A DNA stretch of 64,000 bases from Candidatus Dormibacteria bacterium. GTDB lineage: Bacteria > Chloroflexota > Dormibacteria > Aeolococcales > Aeolococcaceae. Made by a program: the position numbers and the translations under genes. The notes beneath the pieces are model-generated. The model saw only the letters and a list, made by a program, of their open reading frames with translations. It had not been told where the DNA came from and did not search any database. Below, in pieces: positions 5,119 to 62,581 of this stretch (position 1 is its first letter; each line of letters opens with the position of its first letter). The stretch is taken from NCBI GenBank assembly GCA_049511615.1, contig JBEKXW010000001.1:47517-111516 (forward strand), written 5' to 3'.

Positions 5119-6311
5119 CCCGATGGTTCCACCTCACCGGCTCGCTGAGCCAGCCATCCCCGGCGCAGCTTTCCCAGCGGCGTCCGGGGCAGGGACTCCA
5201 TGACCACCAGCTCGCGGGGTGCACGGTGGCGGCCGAGCAGGGCCCCCACATGCTCCCGCAGGGCCTCCAGGGTCGGCGGCGCAGCCGGGTCGCGAGGTAC
5301 GACGGCCGCCACCACGCGCCGCCCCCAGGTGGGGTCGGGACGGCCAAACACGGCGCAGTCGGCGACCGCGGGATGGCTGCGCAGCGCCGCCTCGACGTCT
5401 CCCGGCCAGACGTTCTCGCCGCCGGTCACGATGAGGTCGTCCAGCCGCCCCTGGACGTGGAGCAGTCCCGCGCCGTCCAGCCAGCCGGCGTCGCCGGTGG
5501 GCAGCCATCCGCCCGCGGTCAGACCGGCGCCGGAGCCGTCGCGGTACCCGCGCAGCAGGGTCGGCCCCCCCAGCTGGATCTCCCCGGCGTCCGTGATCCG
5601 GAGCGAGACGCCGGGCAGCGGAGCTCCGTCGTAGACGACGCCCCCGCAGCTCTGGGTCAGCCCGTAGGTGACCACGCAGGGAGCCCTGGCGGTGGTCGCG
5701 CGGTCCCGGAGCGGCGCCTCCATCCCCCCTCCTCCCACCAGCATGGCCCGGTAGCCGCGGAGGTCGACGCCCGCGTCGAGCGCGCGCACCAGCTGGGTGG
5801 GGACGATCGAGATGAACGGGAACCCGCTCACCGGCTCCAGCTTTCCAGGGCGGCGGAAGAGCAGCGGGGCGCCGCCCAGGATCCCGCGCAGCAGCACCAG
5901 GAGGCCGCCGATGTGAGCGGGCGGCAGGCAGCTCACCCAGCCGTCGCCGGAGCCCGCCGCCAGGGCGCGCAGGGAGGACGTCACGGCGGCCTCGACCCCC
6001 GACCGGGGCAGCTCCACCAGGCGGGAGCGGCCCGAGGAGCCCGAGGTGGCGACGATCAGCGCCACCGCGGAATCCGCCGGCCGGCCCGACGGCGCGCGTC
6101 GCCGGCCCTCCGGGGAGACGATCACCGTCGGCTCGCCACGGGCCAGCAGGGCGCGCGCGGCGGCCGCCGGCAGCCGGTGGTCCACCGGGAAGAGGACAGC
6201 CTCGGAGCTCCACGTCTCGGCGGCGATCCCGAGCCACGCCTCCCCCGGGGGCAGGGTGACCGCGACCACGTCGCCGCGGTGCAGCCGGCCACCACCCGCA
6301 CCTTCACTCAC
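5115..6311 (-). CDS. menE: o-succinylbenzoate--CoA ligase (MenE), short actinobacterial form
   Basis: Adenylate-forming enzyme motifs ([34 protein letters not shown]). GTG at 6311 chosen because it does not overlap divergent menB (ATG 6337). The track ORF extends to 6401. Confidence 0.7.
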
Positions 6312-6336: not shown

Positions 6337-7179
6337 ATGAGCCCAGATGACGGCACCTCCCAGTCCCCCACATGGAGCCCCCACGGCGAGTTCACCGACA
6401 TACGCTACGAGACCGCCGCGGGGATCGCCAAGCTGACCATCAACCGGCCGGAGGTGCGCAACGCCTTCCGCCCGACCACCCTCTTCGAGCTGTCCCGGGC
6501 CTTCGAGATGGCCCGCGACGATCCGGAGGTGGGCGTGGTCATCCTCACCGGGGAGGGCCGCCAGGCCTTCTGCTCGGGTGGCGACCAGCGGGTCCGCGGC
6601 GACGACGGCTATCGCGACGCCCACGGCGTCGGCCGCCTCAACGTCCTCGACCTCCAGGTCCAGATCCGCCGCCTGCCCCAGCCGGTGATCGCCATGGTCG
6701 CGGGCTACGCCATCGGCGGCGGCCACGTCCTTCACCTGGTCTGCGACCTGACCGTCGCCGCCGACAACGCCGTCTTCGGCCAGACCGGGCCGAAGGTGGG
6801 CTCCTTCGACGCCGGTTATGGCGCCGGGCTGCTGGCCAGGACCGTCGGCCTCAAGCGGGCCAAGCAGGTGTGGTTCCTCTGCGAGCAGTACGACGCCGTC
6901 ACCGCCGAGCGGTGGGGCCTGGTCAACTGGGTGGTGCCGGTGGACGAGCTGGAGGCCCGCACGGTCGCGGTCTGCCGCCGGATCCTGGAGATGAGCCCGC
7001 TGGCCCTCCGGCTCCTCAAGGCCGGCTTCAACGCCGACGCCGACGGCCTGGCCGGGATCCAGCAGCTGGCCGGCGACGCCACCCTCCTCTACTACATGGG
7101 AGAGGAGGCCCGGGAGGGCCGCGACGCCTTCCTGGAGAAGCGCCCGCCCGACTTCTCCCGCTTCCCCCGCCGACCGTGA
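6337..7179 (+). CDS. menB: 1,4-dihydroxy-2-naphthoyl-CoA synthase (MenB, crotonase family)
   Basis: [28 protein letters not shown]...[14 protein letters not shown]...[23 protein letters not shown] is nearly invariant MenB sequence. ATG at 6337 inside the longer track ORF. Confidence 0.9.
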
Positions 7180-8132
7180 CCGACCTGGCGGCCGCGGGGC
7201 GGCGCGGCCCCGGCGCGGCCGCCCGGCTCTGGCTGATGGGGGCGCGGCCGCGCACCCTCGGGGTCGGCGCCGTCCCGGTCCTGCTCGGTGCGGCGGCGAG
7301 CGGCCACCCCAAGGCGCTGCCCACGCTGGCCGCGCTGGTGGTGGCCGTCGGGCTCCAGGTCGGCGCCAACCTCGCCAACGACTACTTCGACGGCCGCCGA
7401 GGGGTGGACACCGCGGCCAGGGTCGGGCCCCGGCGGCTCACCGCCAGCGGCCTGGTCCGGCCGGGTGCCGTCCTGGCCGCCGCCCTGGCGTGCCTGGCGG
7501 TCGCCGCCGCCATCGGACTCTGGCTGGCGCTGGCGAGCGGCCTCGGCTGGCTGGTCCTGGCCGGTGCCATCGCCCTCGCCGCCACCCTCCTCTACACCGG
7601 CGGGCCCCGCCCCTACGCGGCGACCGGGGTGGTGGCCGACCTGGCGGTGTTCGCCTTCTTCGGCCTGATGGCGACGGTGGCGACCGCCGCCGTGCAGGGC
7701 TCCGGCCTTGCGGCCCGGGTCTGGTGGGCGGCGGTTGCCATCGGCCTGCTCGCGGTCGCCGTGCTGGTCGCCAACAACCTCCGCGACCTCGCCACCGACC
7801 GGGACGCCGGCCGTCACACCCTGGTGGTCCGCCTCGGCGACGGCCCGGCCCGGCTCTTCTACAGCGCGCTGATCATGGGCGGCGTGCTGGTGCCGACGCT
7901 GGGTGTGCTGCTCGGCCAGCTGCCCCTCCTGGCCCTGGTCTCGCTCCTCGCTGTGCCCGCCCTGGTCAGCCCGCTGCGGGTGGCCGGCAGCCGCGCGTTG
8001 CAGGGCCGCGGCCTGGTGCCGCTCCTGCCCCTCACCACCCGCCTGCACCTGGCCCTCGGTGCCCTGCTTGCCGCGGCTCTCCTCGCCGCCGCGCTCCTGC
8101 CCCACCCGGTGGGCATGGCCCACCTCTGGTAG
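7176..8132 (+). CDS. menA: 1,4-dihydroxy-2-naphthoate polyprenyltransferase (MenA, UbiA family)
   Basis: UbiA-family membrane protein ([15 protein letters not shown]...[23 protein letters not shown]). GTG at 7176 overlaps the menB stop (GTGA). Confidence 0.8.
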
Positions 8133-8282: not shown

Positions 8283-9662
8283 GTGTCGACAACGCTGCGG
8301 CGCGAAATCCGGCGCCGCCATCTCCTCCCACGTCTCACCGACGCCCTGGCCGATACCCGCGTGGTCCTTATCACCGGGGCGCGGCAGGCCGGGAAGAGCA
8401 CGCTCGCTCGGATGCTTCTGGCTCGGGTCAACGGTGCCGTGGAGTACACGCTGGACGACCCTGCGACGCTGGCCGCGGCTCGAGTCGACCCGACTGGATT
8501 CGTCACGGACAGGGCGACGATCTTCATCGATGAGGTCCAGCGCGCCCCCGAGCTGCTGCTCGCCATCAAGGCGGCCGTTGACCGGTCACCCGCAACGGCC
8601 AGGTTCCTCCTCACCGGCTCCGCCAACGTTCTCTCGATGGCTCGCGTCGCGGACACCCTGCCAGGTCGGATGGAGGTGGTCGAGCTCTCGCCCTTCTCCC
8701 AGGGGGAGGTGGAGGGCGAGGTCGACACCTTCATCGATCGCGCCTTCGATGGCTGGACCGATCGCACCGGTTCGTCGCTGACCAAGGGCGACTATCTGGA
8801 CCGAGCGGTCCGCGGCGGCTTCCCCGAGATCGTGCTCCACCGTGCCACCGAGCGACGGCGCGCCGCCTGGTTCTCGAGCTACATCGCCGCCACCGTGCAG
8901 AGGGAAGCGCGCGACATCGCCGGCGTCGAGCGGCCAGCCGAGCTGAGCCGTCTTCTCCGGCTGCTCGCGGCCCGCAGCGGCCAGCTCCTCAAGATCGAGG
9001 AGGTAGCTCGCGACGCGGACCTGCCATCCACGACGGCGCGACGCTTCATCCGCCTGATGGAGGCGGCGTACATCGTCCGCACCGTGCCGGGATGGGCGAC
9101 GAGCCGGACCACGCGTGTGGTGCGCATGCCCAAGGTCTTCGTCTGCGACAGCGGGCTCCTGTGCCACGTGCTGGGCGTGAATGCCGAATTCCTCGCCCTC
9201 CCCACCTCCACCATGGCCGGCCACGTCATGGAGACCTTCGTCACCATGGAGCTCTGGCGGCAGCTCGGGTGGTCGCGGACCCGCGCCGACCTCTTTCACT
9301 TCCGCACCAAGGACGGCACCGAGGTCGATGCGGTGCTCGAGGCGCCGGATGGCCGCATCGTCGGGGTGGAGGTCAAGGCGCGCGCAACCGTGCGGAGCGA
9401 GGACTTTCGCGGTCTCCGGCTGCTCGCGGACGCGGCCGGCGACCAGCTTCGCGCGGGCCTCGTGCTCTACACAGGAACGGATACGCTCGCGTTCGGGGAC
9501 AGGCTGCGATGCCTTCCCCTCAGCGCGCTCTGGGAGAGGGAGGGTGGCCAGCTCGAGCCCACGGCGACGGCCCAACCGGCGACCTCCGTTGACGGCCCTG
9601 GGACGATGCTGAGGTCTCGTCACCGCATGCGCTCGCCGGGCACAGAGGAGCGCCGCCCATGA
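8283..9662 (+). CDS. AAA+ superfamily ATPase of the COG1373 (AAA_14 + DUF4143) type
   Basis: N-terminal Walker A ([16 protein letters not shown]) and Walker B (IFIDEVQ), with a C-terminal DUF4143-like region. Its stop overlaps the menC ATG (ATGA). TAGAAT -10-like hexamer ~8 nt before the GTG. Confidence 0.75.
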
Positions 9663-12844: not shown

Positions 12845-14041
12845 ATGTCCCAAACCTCCCGAGATCTGCTCGCCGCCGCGCGCCGGACCGTCCGCGAGCT
12901 GACCCCCCACCAGGTGCGGGAGACCGGGGAGCGGGTTCTGATCGACGTCCGCGAGCAGGACGAGTGGGACCAGGGCCACATCCCCGGGGCGCTCCACCTG
13001 AGCAAGGGATACATCGAGATGCGGATCGAGGAGACGGTGCCCGACCGCTCCACCCCGATCACGCTCTACTGCGCCGCCGGGGTCCGCTCCCTGTTCGCCG
13101 CCCAGGTGCTCGACGGGATGGGCTACCACGACGTCGCCTCCATGTCGGGGGGCTTCGACGCCTGGAAGCAGGCCGGTTATGAGTTCGTGATCCCCCGAGC
13201 CCTGACCGTCGAGCAGAAGCTCCGCTACAGCCGCCACCTGCTCATGCCCGAGATCGGCGAGGAGGGCCAGGCCAAGCTCCTCGAGGCCAGGGTGCTGCTC
13301 ATCGGCACCGGCGGGCTGGGCTCGCCGGCCGCCCTCTACCTGGCCGCCGCCGGGGTGGGGACCCTCGGGCTGGTCGACTTCGACACCGTCGAGGTGAGCA
13401 ACCTGCAGCGCCAGATCCTCCACACCCAGGACCGGATCGGCATGCCCAAGACCCAGTCCGCCAGGATCGCCCTCAACGCGCTCAACCCCGACGTCCGGGT
13501 GGTCGAGCACGACGAGATCCTGAACAGCGAGAGCGCTCCCCGGCTCTTCCGCCAGTACGACATCATCGTCAACGGCTGCGACAACTTTCCGACCCGCTAC
13601 CTGGCCAACGACGTCGCCATCTTCGAGCGCAAGCCGCTGGTGGACGGCGGCATCTTCCGCTTCGAGGGTCAGGTGTCCACCATCCTGCCCTTCACGTCGC
13701 CTTGCTACCGCTGCCGCTACCCGGCGCCGCCGCCGCCCGAGGAGGCGCCGTCCTGCGCCGAGGCGGGGGTGCTCGGCGTGCTGCCCGGCATCGTCGGCGT
13801 GCTCCAGGCGACCGAGGTGGTCAAGCTGATCCTCGGGGTCGGCGCGCCGCTCACCGGACGCCTGCTCCACATCGACGCCCTGGACATGCGCTTCCGCGAG
13901 TTCCGCGTGCCCCGCGATCCCGAGTGCCCGGTCTGCGGTGAGCACCCGACCATCACCGAGCCGATCGACTACGAGGGCTTCTGCGCGGTCCCGCTCACCC
14001 GTCCCGCGGCGGCTCCCCCGGCGCTCGCGACCGCCGGCTGA
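12845..14041 (+). CDS. rhodanese-domain / ThiF-MoeB-type E1-like adenylyltransferase fusion (rhodanese N-terminal)
   Basis: Residues ~1-110 form a rhodanese domain with catalytic Cys (LYCAAGVRS). The rest is ThiF/MoeB (LLIGTGGLGSPAALYLAAAGVGTLGLVDFD, RQILH) with two CxxC pairs (CYRC, CPVC). Confidence 0.85.
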   Translation: MSQTSRDLLAAARRTVRELTPHQVRETGERVLIDVREQDEWDQGHIPGALHLSKGYIEMRIEETVPDRSTPITLYCAAGVRSLFAAQVLDGMGYHDVASMSGGFDAWKQAGYEFVIPRALTVEQKLRYSRHLLMPEIGEEGQAKLLEARVLLIGTGGLGSPAALYLAAAGVGTLGLVDFDTVEVSNLQRQILHTQDRIGMPKTQSARIALNALNPDVRVVEHDEILNSESAPRLFRQYDIIVNGCDNFPTRYLANDVAIFERKPLVDGGIFRFEGQVSTILPFTSPCYRCRYPAPPPPEEAPSCAEAGVLGVLPGIVGVLQATEVVKLILGVGAPLTGRLLHIDALDMRFREFRVPRDPECPVCGEHPTITEPIDYEGFCAVPLTRPAAAPPALATAG

Positions 14042-16358: not shown

Positions 16359-17354
16359 ATGGGTGCGATGCCCGCGGTCCTGTGCACGCTGCCGCTCCCC
16401 GATCCCTTCACGGCGCTGATCTCCCCGGCCGCCTCGCTCCGGGTGCTGGGCCGGCTCCCCGGACACGCCGAGCTGTGCAGCGCGCTCCGGGAGGACCCCG
16501 CCGACATCCTCTGCCCCCAGCTCGCCGACGTCATCGACGCGGCGGTCCTCGACGCCGGCCTGCCCCGCCTGCGGGGCGTGTGCGTGTACGCCGTCGGCTA
16601 CAACAACGTGGACGTCACCGCCGCGACCGAGCGCGCGATCGCGGTCGGCCACACCCCCGGGGTGCTCACCGATGTCACCGCCGACCTCACCATGGCCCTG
16701 CTGCTGGCGGTGGCGCGGCGCGTCGTCGAGGGCGACACGGCCATGCGCACCGGCAGTTTCCGGGGCTGGGAGCCCGGCTACATGCTGGGGATGGAGCTGC
16801 GGGACGCGCTGCTCGGGATCGTCGGCTTCGGCCGGATCGGCCAGGCGGTGGCACGCCGCGCCCGTGGATTCGGGATGCGGCTGGCCGCCCACGGCCGCCA
16901 CGGCGTCCAGGTCCCCGAAGATCTCGCCGGGTCTGTCCAGATCTTCGACGACCTCGATCGCCTCCTCGCCGCGAGCGATGTGGTCTCGCTCCACACCCCC
17001 CTCACCCCGGAGACGCGCCACCTCATCGACGAGTCCGCCCTGCGGCGGATGAAGCCCACCGCGATCCTGGTCAACGCCGCGCGCGGTCCGGTGGTCGATG
17101 AGCGGGCGCTGGTCAGGGCCCTCCGGGAGGGTTGGATCGCCGGCTGCGGGCTGGACGTGTACGAGGACGAGCCACGGGTGGCGGCGGGGCTGACCGAGTG
17201 CCGCAACGTGGTGCTGACGCCCCACCTCGGCAGCGCCACGGTGAGGGCGCGCTCCGCGATGGCCGAGCTGACCGCCGCCAACGCCCTCGCGGTGCTGGCG
17301 GGTGATCTGCCTGTCCACTGCGTCAACCCCGAGGTCGCCGGGGTGCGCCGGTGA
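16359..17354 (+). CDS. D-isomer-specific 2-hydroxyacid dehydrogenase (glyoxylate/hydroxypyruvate reductase-like)
   Basis: GIVGFGRIGQAVARRA NAD-binding loop and catalytic R/E/H context (NAARGPVVDE...LDVYEDEP...TPHLGSAT). Confidence 0.85.
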   Translation: MGAMPAVLCTLPLPDPFTALISPAASLRVLGRLPGHAELCSALREDPADILCPQLADVIDAAVLDAGLPRLRGVCVYAVGYNNVDVTAATERAIAVGHTPGVLTDVTADLTMALLLAVARRVVEGDTAMRTGSFRGWEPGYMLGMELRDALLGIVGFGRIGQAVARRARGFGMRLAAHGRHGVQVPEDLAGSVQIFDDLDRLLAASDVVSLHTPLTPETRHLIDESALRRMKPTAILVNAARGPVVDERALVRALREGWIAGCGLDVYEDEPRVAAGLTECRNVVLTPHLGSATVRARSAMAELTAANALAVLAGDLPVHCVNPEVAGVRR

Positions 17355-18229
17355 CGGTTCGCGGCGCCCCCCCTCCGCTCGCCGAGGCGATCCTGCCCGA
17401 CCGGGTCGAGATGGTCGTCCTCGACCTGGATGGGACCTGCCTCGACTTCCACCAGCAGCTCCATCCCCGGATCGAGGCCGCGGTCCGCCAGGCGGGGGAG
17501 CGGGTGCCGGTGGTCATCGCCAGCGGGCGGATGTACCGCTCCGCGCTCCCCTGGGCGCGCCGCCTCGGGGTCCGGGCTCCCCTGATCTGCTACCAGGGCG
17601 CGCTGGTCCAGGCCATGCCGGACCCCGATCCCGGAGACGGCCTGGCCTATGGCCGGGTGGTCGCCACCGAGGTCCTCGACGCCGCCACGGCACAGCGGGC
17701 GATCGCCGTCGCCCGGGAGCACGGCTGGCACCGCCAGGCCTACGTCGACGACAACCTGCTCTGCGAGGAGGACCGTCCCGAGGCCCGCCTCTACGCCGGG
17801 GTCGGCGCCGTCCCCATCCAGTTCGTGGACGACCTCGCGCTGGCCATCGCCGGTGGGACGGTCAAGGTCGTCTGCGTGGTCCTCGACTCCGAGGAGGCGG
17901 TGCGCTGCCGGGTCTCGATGACCGCGGCGTTGGGAGCGCGGGCCCGGGTGACCCCGTCCTACCCGCAGTTCATCGAGATCGCCTCCCCCCGGGCCGGCAA
18001 GGGCCCGGCGGTGCGGCGGGTGGCCGGGGCCCTCGGCGTCGAGCTCTCCCGCGCGGTCGCCATCGGGGACGCCCCCAACGACTCGGACATGCTGGAGACC
18101 GTGGGGTTCGGGGTGGCGGTCGAGGGCGCGCTGGACGAGGTCCTCGAGGGCGCCGACTGCACCTGCCCGCCCCCCACGGAGGGCGGCGTCGCCGACGTCC
18201 TGGTCGCCCTCGGCCTGGCTCGCCCGTAG
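17351..18229 (+). CDS. HAD-superfamily hydrolase, Cof-like (HAD-IIB) phosphatase
   Basis: VVLDLDGTCLD (DxDGT motif I)...GDAPNDSDM (motif IV). GTG start overlaps the upstream stop. Confidence 0.8.
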   Translation: MTVRGAPPPLAEAILPDRVEMVVLDLDGTCLDFHQQLHPRIEAAVRQAGERVPVVIASGRMYRSALPWARRLGVRAPLICYQGALVQAMPDPDPGDGLAYGRVVATEVLDAATAQRAIAVAREHGWHRQAYVDDNLLCEEDRPEARLYAGVGAVPIQFVDDLALAIAGGTVKVVCVVLDSEEAVRCRVSMTAALGARARVTPSYPQFIEIASPRAGKGPAVRRVAGALGVELSRAVAIGDAPNDSDMLETVGFGVAVEGALDEVLEGADCTCPPPTEGGVADVLVALGLARP

Positions 18230-18230
18230 G

Positions 18231-18345
18231 GTCGGGGGAAGCCCTCGCCGGTTCGCGGGAAAGCCCTTCCGGGGGGGCGGGAAACCCTGTCCAGGATCGG
18301 GGGAAAGCCTTTCAAGATCGGGGGAAAACCCGGATTCGGGAGCCC
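18231..18345. repeat. five tandem imperfect ~21-23-bp direct repeats, core CGGGGGAAAGCCC
   Basis: ggtcgggggaagccctcgcc / ggttcgcgggaaagcccttcc / gggggggcgggaaaccctgtcc / aggatcgggggaaagcctttca / agatcgggggaaaacccggattc, read directly from the sequence. Lies in the 142-bp spacer upstream of the 18372 gene. Confidence 0.6.
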
Positions 18346-18371
18346 CCTCGCGCGCGCTCTAATCGACCCCG

Positions 18372-18911
18372 ATGTCCATCACCGAGTCCGGCACCTATCG
18401 ACGTCCCGAAGGGGGGGCTTCCATCTGGAGGCTGCCGGACGAGGCCGACCCCCGGCAGCTCATCGCCGCGCGCCACCTCCTGCGTGTGGAGGCCTACCTG
18501 GCCCCGGTCGGCGGCGGGCTGCTGGCGGGCCTGGCCCTGAGCGGGGCCGGAGCCTCGCCCATCGAGGACTGGCGGGTCTCGGGGGCCGGCCTCGCCCTCT
18601 GCGTCCTCCTGGTCGGCGCCGCGAGCGCCTGCTGGGTCGCGGTGAGCGTCCGGGTCGGACAGCGGGCGTGGGCGTACCGGGTCGCATTGGCCCTCCAGGT
18701 GGGGCTGATCCTGGCGGCGGTGGCGGGGCCCGGCGGGGCGATCAGCACGGCGCAGCAGAGCGGCGCCCCCGCTCCCGGGAGCCCTGCCCTCCTCCTCCCC
18801 TTTGGTCTCCTCTTCGTGGTGCCGGTCGCCACCCTCGTGCTGCTGCTGCATCCCGCCTCCCGCGGCTCCACCCCTACGGACCGCCGAGGGGGCGCTCCGT
18901 CGGGCCGCTAG
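18372..18911 (+). CDS. hypothetical integral membrane protein (3-4 predicted TM segments)
   Basis: Track ORF with hydrophobic helices (LLAGLALSGAGAS, LALCVLLVGAASACWVAV, LALQVGLILAAVAG, LLLPFGLLFVVPVATLVLLL). No recognisable family. Confidence 0.4.
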   Translation: MSITESGTYRRPEGGASIWRLPDEADPRQLIAARHLLRVEAYLAPVGGGLLAGLALSGAGASPIEDWRVSGAGLALCVLLVGAASACWVAVSVRVGQRAWAYRVALALQVGLILAAVAGPGGAISTAQQSGAPAPGSPALLLPFGLLFVVPVATLVLLLHPASRGSTPTDRRGGAPSGR

Positions 18912-21350: not shown

Positions 21351-21392
21351 CGGCAAGGGCGAACCAGGATGCCGGCAAAGGCGAACCGGGAT
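21351..21392. promoter_or_regulatory. tandem 20-21-bp direct repeat in the MarR/MFS promoter region (candidate operator)
   Basis: CGGCAAGGGCGAACCAGGAT followed directly by CGGCAAAGGCGAACCGGGAT, starting 38 nt upstream of the MarR ATG. Surrounding region is AT-richer than the genome. Confidence 0.45.
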
Positions 21393-21443
21393 CCCGCCCG
21401 CGCGGCCCGCCGGCGTGGCGGAGCCATACTCCGTTGCCGCGCC

Positions 21444-28214: not shown

Positions 28215-30869
28215 TTACTCTCGTGCCGGCTCGTAGAAGACCATCTGGTTGGCCTGGAAGTGGAGATCGATCTTGGTCGTCGGGCCGTTCCGGTTCTTCT
28301 CCACCAGCAGCTCCGTCACCGAGCGGTCGATGTCCTCCTTGTGCATTCCCGGGCGGTAGAGGAAGAGCACCACGTCCGCGTCCTGCTCAATTGAGTTATG
28401 GACTACTATGTCATTTACTATGAGATCATGCAGGCCGTCAACCGTGATGTCATACACCGCCTCGGTGCCGTCCGCTGTGATGGCTGACACCGGGTCCCAG
28501 TAGACGTCACTTTCGGCGAGCCGGAAGAGCTCCTCGCTCTCCAGGATCGCGGCCGCCTGGCCGGCACGGGCGCGATCGAGTCCGTGCGCGAACAGGGCGC
28601 TCCCGTGATAGTGGGTGCCCATGGCTGCCTGAAGACTGCGCTGCCTCATCGCGGCTGCACTCATGGCTGGTATCACGACCGCTCTCCAGGCGGCCGCCGG
28701 GACGACGTCGCGATTGGGGTTCCTGTCGGTGCGGTCGAGCCGGTCGGCGATCCTGGCGATGTGGTCGGCGGCGCCCGGGCGCACGCCTCCCACCAGGGCG
28801 ATGAACCGCAACAGGTCGTCGCCCCCGGAGATTCCGACGTGGTACTGATCTCGACCCTTGCCGCTCTGGGTGACCCTGCGGATGTGGGTGGCGATGTTGA
28901 GCTGCAGGAGCAGCGAGCGGACACCGAAGGCCAGGTCGCGGCTGCTGCTCGCGTAGTAGACGCCGGGAACCTCGTGCAGGGCCTCGGACATGTGGATGCA
29001 GCCGTCGGTGGCCCAGAGGTGGCGCAGGAAGGTGGCGATCCCGCTCACCGTCTGCGCGAAGACGGCGTCGGGAACCCGCTTCTCATACGAGCGCAGACCG
29101 AAGGCGCCGAGCCCATCCAGCCACGCGGCGACGGGGTTGCGACGGCCGTGGGTGAGCCGTTCGGCCGACGCCAGGTACACCTGGTACCAGGTGCGCTCTT
29201 GGTTGATCCTCGGGACCACCTCGTCCCCGAACACCCGGCGCGCAAGACCCGCCACCAGCTCCGCCAGCTCACGGTCCTTGGTCGTGTACTGGATGACGTG
29301 GCGGGGGAGGGTGCAGCCGTCGCCGATGAGGTGACCGAGGAGAGCGAGCTCGTCGTCGCTCATGGTGGCGTGGTCACCGCAGGGCAGCCATCGCGGAGTC
29401 GCCAGGTGGGTGCCCGGGGTGAGCTCGTCGAGCCGGCGCCACCCCTCCACGGTGAGGAACCGGTGGTTGGCCGAGGCGCGGATGGCACGCCCCGAGCGGA
29501 GCTGGAGCCGGAAGACCGGTTTGACCCCGGAATGGAATGCCCGGACCGCCCGCCGCGGCTCCAGCTGCCACGTCTCCGGGTTGAGCGCCAGCACCTCGAA
29601 GTCCTCTCTGCCCACCAGGTCACGGATCGGGACGGGGCGGCACTCGCCGGCCAGCCACACCAGGCTCTCCCCGGTGAGACACCCGGAGTCACGGAGGTCG
29701 CTCAGCTGGGGCTTGCGGTTCTCCCGGCGCTCCGACTCGCGGGAGAGCTGGGAGAGGGCGAGCACCGGGATGTGGAGCTCCTTGGCGATGGTCTTGAGGC
29801 CGCTCGAGATCTCCGACACCTCCTGGACCCGTGAGTCCTGACGGCCGCCCCGCATCAGCTGGAGGTAGTCGACCACCACCAGGTCGACGTTGTGCTGCGC
29901 CTTCATCCGCCGGGCCCGGGCGCGCAGCTCGCTGATCGGGAGCGCGGGGGTGTCGTCGATCCAGATGTTGGCCTGGGAGAGCCGGTCCATGGCGCCGGCG
30001 ATGCGCTCGAAGGCGTGAGCGTCGGCCTGGCCGGTGCTGATCAGGTAGGCGTCCACCTTGGCCTCGCTGCAGATGAGCCGCTGCACCAGCGCCTGCTTGC
30101 TCATCTCCAGGGAGAAGATGACCACCCGCCGCTCGGCGAGCACCGCGGCGTTGCGGGCGATGTTGAGGGCGAACGAGGTCTTGCCCACCGCCGGTCTCGC
30201 CGCCAGCACGATCAGCTCGTCGGGCTGGAGGCCCTGCGTCACCGCGTCCAGCCGGCTGTAGTTGGTCGGCACGCCGTGGACGATCTGGCGGCTCTGGGCC
30301 CGCCGCTCCATCAGCTCCCAGGTGTCGGTGAGCATCTGGGCGATGTGGCTGATCTCCAGGCTGCGCTGGGAGTCGGCGATCGAGAAGATCCGCCTCTCCG
30401 CGGTGTCCAGGATGTCCTCGGTCCGCTGACCGGCGTCGAAGCCCAGCTGGGCCATGTCACCGGCGGCCGCGATGAGACGGCGGCGCAGCGAATGGTCGAC
30501 CACGATCTGGGCGTAGTGGCGCACCGAGGCGGCGGTGGGCATCTTCTGGCTCAGCTCGGCCAGGTACTCGATGCCCCCGCTGTGGGCCAGGGTGCCGTCG
30601 CGTTCCAGCTGCACCTTGAGGGTGAGGACGTCGACGGGTTCGCCGCGGTCGGAGAGTGCCAGCGCGGCGCGGAAGATGTGCCCGTGGCGCTCCGCGTAGA
30701 AGTCGCCCGGAGCGAGGATGTCGCGGATCGTGAGGATGGCGTTCGCGTCGATGAGCAGGCAGCCCAGCACCGCCTGCTCAGCGTCCAAGTCGTGTGGCAG
30801 GACGCGCCCTGACGGCGCGGCCGGCCCGACTGTTGCCGGCCCCCGCAACTCCTGCGGAGGCGTGCTCAC
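28215..30869 (-). CDS. dnaB: replicative DNA helicase DnaB, interrupted by an in-frame intein
   Basis: DnaB N-terminal domain, Walker A (GKTSFALN) and Walker B. An insertion beginning 'CLTGESLVW' after ...SDLRDSG and ending '...VVHN' before 'SIEQDADVV' interrupts the frame. Confidence 0.95.
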   Translation of the reverse strand: MSTPPQELRGPATVGPAAPSGRVLPHDLDAEQAVLGCLLIDANAILTIRDILAPGDFYAERHGHIFRAALALSDRGEPVDVLTLKVQLERDGTLAHSGGIEYLAELSQKMPTAASVRHYAQIVVDHSLRRRLIAAAGDMAQLGFDAGQRTEDILDTAERRIFSIADSQRSLEISHIAQMLTDTWELMERRAQSRQIVHGVPTNYSRLDAVTQGLQPDELIVLAARPAVGKTSFALNIARNAAVLAERRVVIFSLEMSKQALVQRLICSEAKVDAYLISTGQADAHAFERIAGAMDRLSQANIWIDDTPALPISELRARARRMKAQHNVDLVVVDYLQLMRGGRQDSRVQEVSEISSGLKTIAKELHIPVLALSQLSRESERRENRKPQLSDLRDSGCLTGESLVWLAGECRPVPIRDLVGREDFEVLALNPETWQLEPRRAVRAFHSGVKPVFRLQLRSGRAIRASANHRFLTVEGWRRLDELTPGTHLATPRWLPCGDHATMSDDELALLGHLIGDGCTLPRHVIQYTTKDRELAELVAGLARRVFGDEVVPRINQERTWYQVYLASAERLTHGRRNPVAAWLDGLGAFGLRSYEKRVPDAVFAQTVSGIATFLRHLWATDGCIHMSEALHEVPGVYYASSSRDLAFGVRSLLLQLNIATHIRRVTQSGKGRDQYHVGISGGDDLLRFIALVGGVRPGAADHIARIADRLDRTDRNPNRDVVPAAAWRAVVIPAMSAAAMRQRSLQAAMGTHYHGSALFAHGLDRARAGQAAAILESEELFRLAESDVYWDPVSAITADGTEAVYDITVDGLHDLIVNDIVVHNSIEQDADVVLFLYRPGMHKEDIDRSVTELLVEKNRNGPTTKIDLHFQANQMVFYEPARE
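28395..29681 (-). mobile_element. DnaB intein (429 aa) with LAGLIDADG homing-endonuclease domain
   Basis: Block A Cys1 (CLTGESLV), LAGLIDADG-type motifs (LLGHLIGDGC, FLRHLWATDGC) and a terminal HN followed by Ser+1. Removing it restores a contiguous DnaB. Confidence 0.85.
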
Positions 30870-31312
30870 TTTGCGGCGACGACGACCCGGAGCGTCTCGG
30901 TGACCTCGGGGTGGAGCTCGATCTCGACCTCGTGGGGGCCGAGGGACTTGATCGGCGGCTCCACCGCGATCTTGCGCTTGTCGATCTCGAGGCCGGCCTC
31001 ACGCTTGAGCTGCTGGGCGATGTCCGCGTTGGTGACCGAGCCGAACAGCCGCCCCGCCTCGCCGGTCTTGGCGTAGATGGTGACGGTGAGCTTGCGCAGC
31101 CGGGCACTGACCTCGCGGGCGTCATGGAGCGCCTTCTCGGCGCGGCGGCGAGCCGCCTCCTCGCGCTGCCGGATCTGCTCCACCATCCGGTCGTCGGCCG
31201 CGACCGCCAGCTTGTGGGGGAGCAGGTGGTTGCGCGCGTAGCCGGGGGCGACCTCCTTGACCTCTCCGGCCCGCGCCGTCCCGGCGACCTCCTTGAGGAA
31301 TAACACCTTCAT
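30866..31312 (-). CDS. rplI: 50S ribosomal protein L9
   Basis: MKVLFLKEVAGTARAGEVKEVAPGYARNHLLP... is a highly conserved L9 N-terminus, immediately upstream of dnaB. ATG at 31312. Confidence 0.9.
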   Translation of the reverse strand: MKVLFLKEVAGTARAGEVKEVAPGYARNHLLPHKLAVAADDRMVEQIRQREEAARRRAEKALHDAREVSARLRKLTVTIYAKTGEAGRLFGSVTNADIAQQLKREAGLEIDKRKIAVEPPIKSLGPHEVEIELHPEVTETLRVVVAAK

Positions 31313-42677: not shown

Positions 42678-42686
42678 GGGGCCTCG

Positions 42687-43424
42687 GTGCCCACGGTTCT
42701 CTTGATCGACGTGCCCGAGCCCCGCGCGGCGGGCCTCGAGGAGCGTCTGGCGGTCGACGGGCACCTGGTGCGCCGGGCCACCGGCTGGCCCGCCGAGCGC
42801 CCCGACGCCGCCGAGGTGGACGTGGTGCTGGCCCACACCGCCAACCCCGCCGCCCTCGCCCTGGCGGTGCGCCGGCTGAGCAGGGCACCGCTCATCCTGG
42901 TCAGCGGGGCCGCGGCGACCGACCGGGTCGCAGCCCTGGCCTGCGGTGCCGACGTCTGCCTGGCCGAGTCCGAGTCCGATCCCGTGGTCGAGGCCCATGT
43001 GATCGCGCTGCTGCGCCGCTGGCAGCCGCGCGTCCGCCACCAGACGGAGACGGTCCAGGTCGGCGAGCTGGCCCTCGACCCGCCGGCGCGCCGCGCCCAG
43101 GTGGGCGGCGCCGATCTCGAGCTGAGGCCCCGCGAGTTCGACCTCCTGGTGGCCCTGGCCCGCTCCGCGGGGCGCGCCCTCCGGCGCCACGAGCTTCTCG
43201 ACCTGGTCTGGGGCCCTCGCTTCTCCGGTGGGGTCAACACGGTCGACGTTCACATCTCCTGGCTGCGCCAGAAGCTGCCGGCGGAAGCCCGGGTCCGGAT
43301 CACCACCCTCCGCGGGGTCGGTTACCGGCTGGACGAGCTGAGCCGGCCGCCGGCGGACGTGCCGGTCCCGGAGCCGATGCCCGAGCCGGTGGCCGCGGCT
43401 GCGGGATCGCCCACGGATCGGTGA
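42687..43424 (+). CDS. OmpR/PhoB-family winged-helix regulator with atypical (pseudo-)receiver domain
   Basis: C-terminal trans_reg_C (VQVGELALDPPARRAQVGGADLELRPREFDLLVALAR...TVDVHISWLRQKL...TLRGVGYRL). N-terminal receiver-like fold lacks the acidic DD pair, the phospho-acceptor Asp and the conserved Lys. Confidence 0.7.
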   Translation: MPTVLLIDVPEPRAAGLEERLAVDGHLVRRATGWPAERPDAAEVDVVLAHTANPAALALAVRRLSRAPLILVSGAAATDRVAALACGADVCLAESESDPVVEAHVIALLRRWQPRVRHQTETVQVGELALDPPARRAQVGGADLELRPREFDLLVALARSAGRALRRHELLDLVWGPRFSGGVNTVDVHISWLRQKLPAEARVRITTLRGVGYRLDELSRPPADVPVPEPMPEPVAAAAGSPTDR

Positions 43425-51310: not shown

Positions 51311-52368
51311 TCGGACCGCCGGCGGCCGTCTCCGCGCCGACGGGTAGCATGGCCCCCGTGGCCAGCCTTTCCGACGCGAGGTGGAGTTCGGCTGTTGGCG
51401 AGGCCGCCTGGATCGGCGGGCGGCTCGCCCCCTTCGAGGTCCGCTGGGTCGCATCGGTGATCCCCGGCGGCTTCGAGGCATACGCCCGAGTCCTGCACCC
51501 CGCCTCCGTCCGCGCTCCTGGTGAGGGGGCTCCGGTGCGCTGGCGCGACGTGGCTGCCTGGAGTGGGGGTTCGGTCGACCGCGGCACCCAGTTCCACTCG
51601 ATCGCCCTGCCCCCGGTCCGACCGGCCGGGGAGCCGCCCTGGCGGGGCCAGGGTCCGCTCACCGGAACCCCCTACCCGCCGGACGCTGCGGTCCTCGTCG
51701 AGGTCCTGCGGGCGGCGACCACGACGCCCGAGCGGTGCTGCTTCTGCCTCTGGGACGGCTACGGCTGGGAGCGGGGGAGGAACTTGCTCACCCGCCGCGG
51801 GGAGCCTCCGGTCCGGCTCCCCGGCCCCATCCCCGAGCGGGTGCTCACCGGACCGCGGGTGCGCCTGCCGCACCGCGACTACCTCCTCTACACGGGACCG
51901 GCGGAGGCCGTGTTCGCCCCCCTGCTCCTCGGCGAACGGCACCAGCAGGCGGCGAACCTCTGGTGGCCGGCGGATCGGGCCTGGTGCGTCGCCAGCGAGA
52001 CCGATCTGGCCTGGACCTACGTCGGAGGGACCGCTGCGGCCATCGACCGCCTGCTCGGTGACGCCCGGGTCGAGGCCGTCCCCGCGGCTGCCGACGACCC
52101 TCTCACCCGGGTCGAGGCGTGGGTGCAGCGCTGGGTGGACGAGGCCACCGAGGCTCTCCTCGCCACCGGTCGGGCCACCATCGCCACGTCGATGGGGTCG
52201 CTCGAGGCTCTCCTGGAGCGTCCGCGAGGGCGCCGGCCGGGACGGCTGCGCATCCACCGGGACGGCTGGAGCGCAGACACCGTGGTCCGCCACGCCGGGA
52301 AGGAGGGACTTCGCCGGGCGGTATCCTCCTACGTCACCCATGCGGTGATCGAGCTTGTCGGCGGATAG
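51307..52368 (+). CDS. hypothetical protein (353 aa), operonic with sensor kinase
   Basis: Track ORF trimmed to ATG 51307, which overlaps the HK stop. No recognisable family. Contains a CCFCLWDGYGW block. Confidence 0.45.
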   Translation: MIGPPAAVSAPTGSMAPVASLSDARWSSAVGEAAWIGGRLAPFEVRWVASVIPGGFEAYARVLHPASVRAPGEGAPVRWRDVAAWSGGSVDRGTQFHSIALPPVRPAGEPPWRGQGPLTGTPYPPDAAVLVEVLRAATTTPERCCFCLWDGYGWERGRNLLTRRGEPPVRLPGPIPERVLTGPRVRLPHRDYLLYTGPAEAVFAPLLLGERHQQAANLWWPADRAWCVASETDLAWTYVGGTAAAIDRLLGDARVEAVPAAADDPLTRVEAWVQRWVDEATEALLATGRATIATSMGSLEALLERPRGRRPGRLRIHRDGWSADTVVRHAGKEGLRRAVSSYVTHAVIELVGG

Positions 52369-52930
52369 CGGGGAGGGCCCGGGGATGGCGGGACGGACCA
52401 GGCCACGCCACGTCATCGCCCGGTTCCTGGGCTCCCCCGCTGATCAGGTGGCCGTTGTGGGCGGGAGCGTCACCGAGGCGGGGAGCGCGCGGGTCCTGGA
52501 CAGCGTGGCCGTGGCGGGGAGCGCGCGGGTCGTGGAGAGTGCCGCCGTCGCGGGCAGCGTCGCGGTGCTGCGCAGCGCCGGGGTGGCGGGGAGCGCGGCG
52601 ACGGCCTACTCGGCCGGGATCGCGGGCAGCGCGGCCACCGCGGTGTCGGCGGCGGTGGCGGGGAGCGCTGCGACCGCCGGCTCCGCCGCCGTGGCGGGGA
52701 GCGCACTGACCCTGGCCAGCACCGCGGTCGCGGGCAGCGTGCTCACGCTCCTCGGTGCCGTCATCGGGGGATGCGTCGCCACCCTGGCATGCCTGCGCTG
52801 CACCCGGTGCGTGGCCTGTTTCGCCTGCGCCGACTGTGTCGACTGCATCGGTTGCCTCGGCTGCCGGGGCCGGCGCGGAGCGGTGGGCCGGGTCGGGGAG
52901 CGCGCGACACTCCCCGCCCGCCGGCGCTAA
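52355..52930 (+). CDS. low-complexity tandem-repeat protein: ~8 x 12-aa (V/I)AGSAxxAxSAA repeats + hydrophobic segment + C-terminal (CXX)9 cysteine ladder
   Basis: The DNA shows ~36-nt periodic repeats (recurring gtggcggggagcgc). These are followed by a 9-nt periodic tgc-containing array encoding CVATLACLRCTRCVACFACADCVDCIGCLGC. Overlaps the upstream ORF end by 14 nt. Coding status unproven. Confidence 0.4.
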   Translation: MSADSGEGPGMAGRTRPRHVIARFLGSPADQVAVVGGSVTEAGSARVLDSVAVAGSARVVESAAVAGSVAVLRSAGVAGSAATAYSAGIAGSAATAVSAAVAGSAATAGSAAVAGSALTLASTAVAGSVLTLLGAVIGGCVATLACLRCTRCVACFACADCVDCIGCLGCRGRRGAVGRVGERATLPARRR

Positions 52931-61599: not shown

Positions 61600-62265
61600 T
61601 CAGTACTCGTTGCCCGGCGCGGTGATGAGGCCTTCGCGGATGGCGATCGAGACCGCCTCGAGCTTGGAGTGGGCCCCGAGCTTGCTGATGATGCTCTGGA
61701 TGTGGTTGCGCAGGGTGTGGATGCTGATGAAGAGCCGCTTGGCGATCTCCTCGTTGCTCATCCCGTCGGCCAGGAAGAGGAGCACCGCTGTCTCCCGCGG
61801 CGTCAGCGGCTCGGTCAGCGCGGAGCCGTTGACGTCGGGGCTGGTCAGCCGGTTCAGCATCGCCGGCGAGACGGGGGTGGCGCCGGAGGCGGCGGCCCGG
61901 ACCGCGGCGGCCAGCGCGTCGATGCTGTCCCCCTTGGTCACGAACCCGGCGCAGCCGGCGGCCAGGGCCTCGTTGAGGACGCTGGGCTCCATCGCCGCCG
62001 TGACCAGGACGACCTTGGCGCCAGGGCGGATGGCGCGCAGCTCGGCCGCGGCGTGGGTCCCCTGGCCGTCGGGGAGACGCTGGTCCAGCAGGATCACGTC
62101 CACCTCGACCTCCTCCAGCCGGCGCCGCGCCTCGGCCAGGTTCTCGACGGTGTCGACCACCTCCATGTCGGGCTCCTCGGCGAGGGCTGCGGCCACGGCC
62201 TGGGTGAACATGCGGTGGTCATCGATGATGAACACCCGGATGGTCCGAGACAGCGCACCCGGCAC
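61600..62265 (-). CDS. NarL/LuxR-family response regulator
   Basis: IRVFIIDDHRMF...VDVILLDQRLPDG receiver, C-terminal LuxR HTH (LTPRETAVLLFLADGMSNEEIAKRLFISIHTLRNHI). Convergent with the 60484 kinase. Confidence 0.9.
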   Translation of the reverse strand: MPGALSRTIRVFIIDDHRMFTQAVAAALAEEPDMEVVDTVENLAEARRRLEEVEVDVILLDQRLPDGQGTHAAAELRAIRPGAKVVLVTAAMEPSVLNEALAAGCAGFVTKGDSIDALAAAVRAAASGATPVSPAMLNRLTSPDVNGSALTEPLTPRETAVLLFLADGMSNEEIAKRLFISIHTLRNHIQSIISKLGAHSKLEAVSIAIREGLITAPGNEY

Positions 62266-62581
62266 AGGGGTCTCCTTCGAGGTTCGCGGCGGTCCGCTCT
62301 CGCCGCCATTGTTCGAGGGATGCCCGATCCGGGGGGTGGTTTTCGTTGGACTGTCACGGCGGCGTGTCCGGGTTGGGGTGCCGTTGCACCGCCGTCACCC
62401 GTCCGTCCGGCCGCCGCGCGGGGCCGCCCGCGCGACCGGGTGGCGCGGAGAGCGTGCCCTTCGCCTCGCCGGCCTGGGAACGCCAATCCTCGCCGGGGGT
62501 TCTTCAGCACCCCGCTAGTGCACGCGCACCAGGGGAATACCGGCAGTCCGCGTCTGGCCAGGGCGCCCCGGCGGGCACACG

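Follow-up and report, generated by a model that had tools for sequence, protein, structure and literature searches.

A promoter-region element conserved in a small membrane-protein family of Dormibacteria-like bacteria and its probable amplification by tandem duplication

A sequence-only reading of a 64-kb stretch of DNA from a Dormibacteria-like MAG (the window; G+C content of 73.6%) had drawn attention to five tandem repeats of about 22 bp upstream from a membrane-protein gene. Our analysis shows that the repeats are real and, as proposed, located in the promoter region of this gene. The comparison of orthologous loci indicates that the proximal unit alone is ancestral, the other units resulting from a lineage-specific tandem amplification. 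The best explanation for these observations is a leaderless promoter containing a contact site for a regulator or for RNA polymerase, which would have been amplified by 22- and 44-bp tandem duplications (probability of about 0.58). As judged from sequence comparisons, the element is conserved across a small family of membrane proteins in uncultured Dormibacteria-like soil bacteria and the array is an ordinary promoter minisatellite. Dormibacteria are a candidate lineage without cultured members in which, to our knowledge, promoters and regulation are almost undescribed. The organism of the window occurs in peat and bog samples, including JGI 3300018009, 3300018025, and 3300038451.

The array occupies the gap between the gene for a Cof-type HAD phosphatase and a gene encoding a 179-residue membrane protein (Table 1). 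The annotation of the HAD gene and of the ATG start codon of the membrane-protein gene was confirmed. The local gene order is 2-hydroxyacid dehydrogenase, HAD phosphatase, array, and membrane-protein gene, followed on the opposite strand by genes for an MFS transporter and a MarR regulator. Nearly all orthologous loci retained the synteny between the HAD and membrane-protein genes. Elsewhere, the window is ordinary chromosome, including genes for DnaB, FUR, and several histidine kinases, together with a PhoU and OmpR-type pair and a LuxR-type response regulator. The gene for the replicative helicase DnaB (28215-30998, minus strand) contains an intein, itself with a LAGLIDADG homing-endonuclease domain. 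Among the tandem repeats of the window, the strongest is located elsewhere (52466-52704, period of 36, about 3.6 copies, TRF scores of 143-144), inside an open reading frame (52349-52930) that has no Pfam match and probably encodes a repeat protein.

Table 1. Positions of the array, of the conserved promoter-region segments, and of the relevant genes in the window.
Feature	Coordinates	Strand	Remarks
Cof-type HAD phosphatase gene	17351-18229	+	Pfam Hydrolase_3, PF08282, E 1.5e-40; stop codon TAG at 18227-18229
Unit U1	18230-18249	+	20 bp, GGTCGGGGGAAGCCCTCGCC
Unit U2	18250-18270	+	21 bp, GGTTCGCGGGAAAGCCCTTCC
Unit U3	18271-18293	+	23 bp, GGGGGGGCGGGAAACCCTGTCCA
Unit U4	18294-18315	+	22 bp, GGATCGGGGGAAAGCCTTTCAA
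Unit U5	18316-18336	+	21 bp, GATCGGGGGAAAACCCGGATT; ancestral proximal unit
Proximal element	18319-18339	+	CGGGGGAAAACCCGGATTCGG (core + GAT(T/G)CGG); centre ~43-47 nt before ATG
Spacer	18340-18357	+	G+C-rich, sequence variable; between element and box
TCTAAT box	18358-18363	+	TCYAAT in orthologues, TGGAAT in paralogue; putative -10-like element
Membrane-protein gene	18372-18911	+	179 aa; ATG at 18372; no Pfam family
OmpR-type Trans_reg_C protein	42678-43424		candidate regulator, not adjacent to array
LuxR-type response regulator	61600-62394		candidate regulator, not adjacent to array

The five units (20-23 bp each) are arranged head to tail between positions 18230 and 18336, immediately downstream from the HAD stop codon, in a region with a local G+C content of 68%. 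The linkers (6-10 nt) are part of the units, which abut without unique spacers, and the array was rightly described as not CRISPR-like. TRF delineated a repeat at positions 18228-18327 with a period of 22, 4.7 copies, 72% matches, and a score of 77; the repeat search gave start-to-start spacings of 21, 23, and 21. The A-tracts of successive units start 21, 22, 22, and 21 bp apart, in agreement with the proposed spacing of two helical turns. Self-match peaks were detected at lags of 21-22 (z of 6.2-7.0) and 43-44 (z of 5.2-5.8) and nowhere else. At lags of 10-12, self-match was below the shuffle mean (z of -0.9 to -1.6), indicating that the units contain no 10-11-bp sub-period. None of 100 dinucleotide shuffles of the window harbored an array with a period of at least 15 and at least four copies; a score of at least 77 was reached in five of the 100, but with fewer copies. 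The array is non-random, far beyond chance. The core quoted in the sequence-only reading, CGGGGGAAAGCCC, has no exact occurrence: it is a consensus from which the three best units each depart by one base. Positions 18337-18345, which had been counted in the array, are not a sixth unit but part of the conserved GATTCGGGAGCCC segment.

Two types of units alternate along the array, AAAGCC-TTyC (U2, U4, and U1 in part) and AAA(A)CCC-G (U3 and U5). Self-identity was at least as high at lag 44 (0.61) as at lag 22 (0.59), and this observation, together with the alternation of odd and even units, fits the duplication of a two-unit block. The cores of the units (G..GGG.AA.CC) are much better kept between units than the 3' linkers, which could reflect past or present selection on all five units.

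To identify the conserved portion of the region, the intergenic regions between the HAD and membrane-protein genes were compared in twelve orthologous lineages. The arrangement kept among them consists of the core, GATKCGG, 21-22 nt, TCYAAT, 6-11 nt, and ATG or GTG. The core of U5, GGGRAAA(A)CCC, was present in nearly all orthologous lineages. In an alignment of 11 lineages, GAT was invariant within CC-GAT(T/G)C. The length of the spacer was fixed at 21-22 nt, counted from GAT, and its sequence was free. The box was located 6-11 nt before ATG or GTG in all lineages, and no Shine-Dalgarno sequence was present. In the window, 26 nt separate the end of the proximal core from the box, which precedes the ATG by 8 nt.

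The association of the element with the membrane-protein gene was also observed at two loci with a different context. L001 harbors a tandem paralogue of the membrane-protein gene (6729-7260), encoding a protein of 158 residues with 32% amino-acid identity and the same C-terminus (LLLLPASRRAA). A single copy of the element, including the GGGRAAA(A)CCC core and GATGC, is present upstream of this paralogue, in the order TCGGGGGAAACCCCCGATGCC, 21 nt, TGGAAT, 9 nt, and ATG. This copy is located 54 nt before the start codon and about 170 nt past the previous stop codon. The sequence GGAGGGG is found 4 nt before the ATG of the paralogue. At a second locus (L022), the upstream neighbor is a different gene, yet the GATGCGG segment and the box are kept (CCCGATGCGG...TCCAAT). 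These two loci indicate that the element is tied to the start of the gene family and not to where the HAD gene ends. Among the sequence comparisons, the paralogue of L001 is the strongest single evidence for the association between element and gene.

The product of the membrane-protein gene contains three to four hydrophobic helices. The Pfam search identified no family for this protein, and its AlphaFold model was of low confidence (pLDDT of 54). Only 14 relatives (clusters at 90% identity) were found among 5.8 billion database sequences, and all family members observed were carried by contigs with a Dormibacteria or Chloroflexia label. One of the 14 relatives is named from a Candidatus Dormibacteria MAG, and two species-level genomes with the protein are labelled Chloroflexia. 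The genome-contig pattern search with the protein family returned at least two loci.

The nature of the box was evaluated by comparison with the other promoters of the window. The promoter and terminator scan of positions 17800-18800 detected no sigma-70-type site and no terminator-like site, and no recognizable -35 was found at the membrane-protein promoter. Position 2 of sigma-70-type -10 elements is a nearly invariant A. At this position, the box had C or G, and the A was missing in every orthologue. Elsewhere in the window, TAGAAT or TAGACT was found 6-9 nt before gene starts (8283, 12845, and 31767), as exemplified by TAGAAT followed by 6 nt and GTG at 8283 and by TAGACT followed by 6 nt and ATG at 12845. 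The MarR gene has a textbook promoter, TTGCCG-N18-TAAGAT. Together, these boxes and the MarR promoter indicate that the organism uses sigma-70-type promoters and that many of its mRNAs are probably leaderless. By analogy of position, we infer that TCTAAT is a -10-like element and that the membrane-protein mRNA is leaderless, although recognition of the box by another sigma factor, or a role other than that of a -10 element, would also be possible. The ECF pattern considered was GGAA or GGGAG, 16 nt, and TCNAA, and no ECF sigma gene was present among the window ORFs that were scanned.

Several additional signals were considered around the element and rejected. The ATG in CTGATGCGG of the distant clade is the start of a short open reading frame in L005, but neither the frame nor the presence of this upstream reading frame was conserved in the other lineages. 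GATCGGGG could pair with CCCCGATG, located at the start codon, in the window and in L001 but not in L021 and L018. A link with the neighboring MarR regulator was envisaged since CCTGATTCG is common to the element and to the MarR promoter of L005. However, CCTGRTKCG was not enriched, with 8 occurrences in the window for 4.2 expected and chance level in L001 and L005, and we treated the shared sequence as a coincidence.

The number of units varied between lineages. The array of the window was found identical in six contigs from different samples, in which the encoded protein is 99% identical. Five units, with six substitutions, were present in relatives with a 91-95% identical protein (L013 to L016 and L030). 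Two good and two degenerate units were found in L001 (73% protein identity), one good and one degenerate unit in L021 (62%), and one recognizable unit plus a weak second in the lineages at about 55-60%. In L031 (2297-2365) and L032 (902-970), the repeats, the element, and the box are all deleted, leaving 16 nt between the HAD stop codon and the ATG. The membrane-protein gene must therefore rely on read-through from the HAD gene in this lineage, implying that the element is dispensable when such read-through is possible. The copy-number series is thus 5, about 4, 2, 1-2, and 0. The two-unit arrangement of the distant relatives resembles U2 plus U3 as much as U4 plus U5, which fits an ancestral pair that was block-duplicated and then extended.

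Tandem duplication was also detected at other promoter regions of these genomes. At the same site as the array of the window, L035 (positions ~50-140; JGI 3300018085, Ga0187772_10178387) harbors about four 21-22-bp units of GACCGGACCTTCCCCTCCCTGA. This array, with a C-rich coding strand, derives from the last codons and the stop codon of the HAD gene; it is unrelated in sequence, and the usual proximal element comes after it. The TCCAAT box of L005, from the most abundant lineage (P0006), is directly preceded by a tandem duplication of 10 bp (GCGCGGTCCA twice, 5915-5934), which places the element one helical turn further from the box. The window contains a second 22-bp tandem duplication (21351-21396; CGGCAAGGGCGAACCAGGATGC and CGGCAAAGGCGAACCGGGATCC) just upstream of the -35 of the MarR gene, on the minus strand. 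It was present in the window lineage, including L024, and absent from L014, L001, and L005. On the basis of these sequences, tandem duplication of 10-22 bp in promoter regions is recurrent in these genomes.

Divergence was analyzed along the array to identify units under constraint. In comparison to L013, U1 to U3 had 5 differences in 64 positions (7.8%), three of which were located in the cores (including the changes GGGAAA to GGGAGA and GGGAAA to GGCAAA). The fourfold sites of the HAD gene differed by 8.9%. U1 to U3 are degenerate in L001 and absent from more distant relatives. The proximal 78 nt had a single difference with L013. This contrast between distal and proximal portions was not significant alone (Fisher p of 0.09). 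It has also to be considered that the membrane-protein gene is itself atypical in the comparison with L013 (6001-6561), since codon positions 1, 2, and 3 differ by 2.2%, 3.9%, and 1.1%, and fourfold sites by 0.8%, versus a usual pattern of 2.7%, 1.7%, and 8.9% at the three positions of the HAD gene. This pattern suggests recombination or unusual selection, and the membrane protein of the window is devoid of seven residues (AAAAVTC) that are present in P0003. Because of the low divergence at silent sites of the membrane-protein gene, a recombination breakpoint within the array would account equally well for the contrast between distal and proximal units.

U4, which is conserved within the window clade and identical in L013, reads GATCGGGGAAAAGCCTTCCAAA in L001. 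Over U4, U5, and the GATTCGGGAGCCC segment, the window and L001 differ at 6 of 57 positions, versus 7 of the next ten bases of the spacer (Fisher p of 2e-4) and 23-34% of the fourfold sites of the flanking genes (binomial p of 0.013 to 4e-5 against 6/57). The TCTAAT box is identical in the two sequences. These comparisons indicate that the two proximal copies are constrained, the low proximal divergence from L013 not being clean evidence by itself, whereas the three distal units probably have little or no function.

We next consider the distribution of the motif. The statement that no other copy is present in the window was correct whether the window was searched with the core (mismatches allowed), with the unit PWM, or with the proximal element. 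The related loci, about 105 kb, gave a single match, at the promoter of the paralogue. Thus, the suggestion that the motif might mark a regulon was not supported in the approximately 170 kb of DNA searched in total. A metagenome scan for two cores located 19-23 bp apart returned at least 120 stretches, and L040 was the only orthologous locus among the matches listed. Many of the other listed matches were located in short tandem arrays with a period of 19-24 bp, and the unrelated contigs that carry these other matches (26-76% G+C) do not share a gene context. Minisatellites of 19-24 bp are common, and the scan has no bearing on a regulon. Seven unrelated contigs (L050, L060, L066, L105, L121, L124, and L133; G+C of 0.51-0.59) harbored 22-23-bp tandem arrays whose units begin GGTCGGGGGAAA(A/T)CCC or GGTTGGGGGAAAACCCC and share more with the window unit than was demanded by the search pattern. 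No common context was found for these seven arrays; that of L050 is located just upstream of a 461-residue open reading frame with an N-terminus that is transposase-like by eye only. In one small group of metagenome arrays, the units begin GGTCGGGGGAAAACCC.

The following scheme is consistent with these observations. The membrane-protein gene would have its own leaderless-type promoter, with TCTAAT as a -10-like box and an ATG without ribosome-binding site. The conserved 20-nt element (CGGGGGAAAACCCKGATKCGG), about 20 nt upstream of the box, would be bound by a transcription factor; the poor match of the box to a -10 and the lack of a -35 make an activator the most likely candidate. Alternatively, the element may contact RNA polymerase directly. 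We favor a promoter that depends on an activator or is recognized by an alternative sigma factor. In the window lineage, the upstream half of the element would have been copied head to tail by replication slippage, the first event involving about 22 bp and the next a block of two units (44 bp). With a spacing of 21-22 bp, the five copies would be on one face of the helix. The two gene-proximal copies would be constrained, and both may be bound, and the three distal copies would be leftovers that are mutating away.

A different role for the array was suggested by the sequence-only reading, which described its periodicity as typical of binding arrays for multimerizing winged-helix (OmpR/PhoP-like) regulators. 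If all five units were working sites of one multimerizing regulator, of the OmpR/PhoB, AraC, or SARP type, this protein would coat the DNA on one face upstream of the promoter, and expansion of the array by selection would change the dose-response. The 21-22-bp spacing indeed puts the units on one helical face, their cores are better conserved than their linkers, six contigs of different samples carry the array unchanged, and L035 built a 22-bp array independently at the same site. The poor -10 and the missing -35 would fit activator dependence, and OmpR-type and LuxR-type regulators are encoded in the window. However, OmpR and PhoB boxes of 20-22 bp consist of two direct half-sites about 10-11 bp apart, and the units have no such sub-period, so that the proposed OmpR/PhoB-type array was not supported. 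In addition, most relatives have one or two units and one lineage none, the substitutions in U1 to U3 have accumulated at the silent-site rate, including in the cores, and the L035 array amplifies a different sequence. Apart from the single copy in the promoter of the paralogue, no other motif-bearing promoter was found in about 170 kb, and no regulator gene adjoins the array, the nearest OmpR-type gene being 24 kb away. We therefore regard a function of all five units as doubtful. A related proposal is that the core GGGRAAA(A)CCC and GATKC form the operator of a regulator dedicated to the membrane-protein family and that the arrays, which arose twice independently, are adaptive tuning knobs. 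This proposal is unlikely; if it were true, expression would be reset by adding in-phase sites or by setting the spacing from the upstream gene.

Three further explanations were considered. The units might be tandem promoters, as in M. tuberculosis, with the linker hexamers CAGGAT (before U4) and CAAGAT (before U5) as -10 elements, transcripts starting inside the G-runs, and transcription increasing with the number of copies. CAAGAT or CAAAAT is kept in L013, L001, and L021, and the hexamer has the A and the final T that TCTAAT partly lacks and resembles the TAAGAT of the MarR promoter. There is also a precedent for repeated elements upstream of leaderless promoters, with a copy number proposed to alter expression (PMC12817950). 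We nonetheless consider tandem promoters to be very unlikely, as the hexamer is present in only two of the five linkers and is absent in the distant clade although the element and the box are conserved there. The transcripts would have a leader of 46 nt with no Shine-Dalgarno sequence close to the ATG, the promoter scan detected no sigma-70-type site, and a unit of 22 bp is too short for a whole promoter, the TCTAAT box being located outside the units. A lack of function of the entire region, with the proximal unit also part of a neutral minisatellite, is very improbable. The copy number does vary between lineages, L031 and L032 lack the region, short tandem duplications are common in this genome, and 19-24-bp minisatellites with GGGGGAAANCC cores are found in many unrelated organisms according to the metagenome scan. 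Against neutrality, the element and the box are conserved, with a fixed spacing, down to about 55% protein identity and in the 32% identical paralogue, and the spacer next to the element is far less conserved. The designation of the array as a short satellite, also offered by the sequence-only reading, is in part appropriate, since the copy number ranges from 5 to 0 across relatives and the distal units diverge at about the silent-site rate, although the conservation of an identical array in six contigs from different samples, with a 99% identical protein, argues against a freely varying microsatellite.

An action of the array as RNA, as a terminator or attenuator of the HAD gene, a structured leader, a type III antitoxin, or a protein-sponge sRNA, is extremely improbable. 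U5 and the following bases can form the hairpin GGGGG-AAAA-CCCG-GATT-CGGG-AG-CCCCC in the window, a few changes in the orthologues appear to be compensatory, and the layout, repeats followed by a small open reading frame, is superficially like ToxI-ToxN. However, RNAalifold found no consensus structure for 11 orthologues (-0.65 kcal/mol), and pairing of the U5 hairpin (73.8%) was close to that of shuffled sequences (72.0%) and of a slide of +1 (72.3%). Both strands folded no better than shuffles, and slightly worse (z of +1.28 and +1.52). Rfam 15 gave 0 matches in the window at the gathering score and only chance-level matches around the array (E of 2.5-5.2). Finally, there was no terminator-like site, the element stays with the start of the gene at the L022 locus as well as at the paralogue, and the downstream product is a membrane protein rather than an endoribonuclease.

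Comparison with known systems places the array among promoter repeats. Plasmid iterons are 17-22-bp direct repeats with a spacing of about 22 bp, and the array resembles them by the number (five), length, and spacing of its units. It differs from iterons by its chromosomal housekeeping context (DnaB, FUR, MFS, HAD), by the lack of a rep gene and of an A+T-rich stretch (G+C of 68%), and by its absence or shorter length in orthologous loci. In type III toxin-antitoxin systems, the 36-nt repeats of ToxI are located upstream of toxN, and the array is likewise composed of tandem repeats directly upstream of a small open reading frame. In contrast to ToxI, the units are shorter, no RNA fold is conserved, the number of repeats is not conserved with the gene, and the downstream membrane protein has no ToxN- or AbiQ-like domain. 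Context and anatomy exclude iterons, a type III antitoxin array, and CRISPR. Tandem activator sites with a spacing of about 21-22 bp are known for the AraC/XylS family (araI1-I2, MelR) and of PhoB (pho boxes). As in the array, these are direct repeats two helical turns apart, with a proximal site immediately upstream of a promoter whose -35 is weak or missing. The array differs from pho boxes and OmpR sites by the lack of an 11-bp half-site structure. It also differs from the AraC/XylS and PhoB sites in that the proximal core does not abut or overlap the -35 position and instead ends 26 nt upstream of the box, in that no cognate regulator is adjacent, and in that most orthologues have one or two sites.

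The locus provides a defined and conserved promoter-region element for a lineage-specific membrane-protein family of Dormibacteria, comprising the core, GATKC, a spacer of fixed length, a TNNAAT box, and a start codon without Shine-Dalgarno sequence, as well as a natural series in which the upstream half of the element is present in 0, 1, 2, 4, or 5 copies. By analogy, the closest described case is that of the promoter tandem repeats of M. tuberculosis, which are located upstream of leaderless promoters for lpdA (58 bp) and cysG (54-56 bp) and were also reported for dop (PMC12817950). These repeats differ in number from strain to strain, and an effect on expression has been proposed (PMC12817950). 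Both cases involve a high-G+C host, imperfect head-to-tail repeats located tens of bp upstream of a start codon without Shine-Dalgarno sequence, an origin by tandem duplication, and a copy number that varies between lineages. The array is thus located in a promoter region and varies between lineages as promoter tandem repeats do, but its units do not contain a whole promoter. The units are only 20-23 bp long, and only the upstream half of the promoter-region element was copied. No copy-number variation was seen between strain-level relatives, the six contigs being identical, and hence there is no sign of phase variation. If the copies matter for expression, the array would be another case of a promoter rapidly retuned by tandem duplication, as proposed for M. 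tuberculosis; if they do not, it would be a decaying minisatellite. In either case, the array would belong to a known kind of system rather than to a new one.
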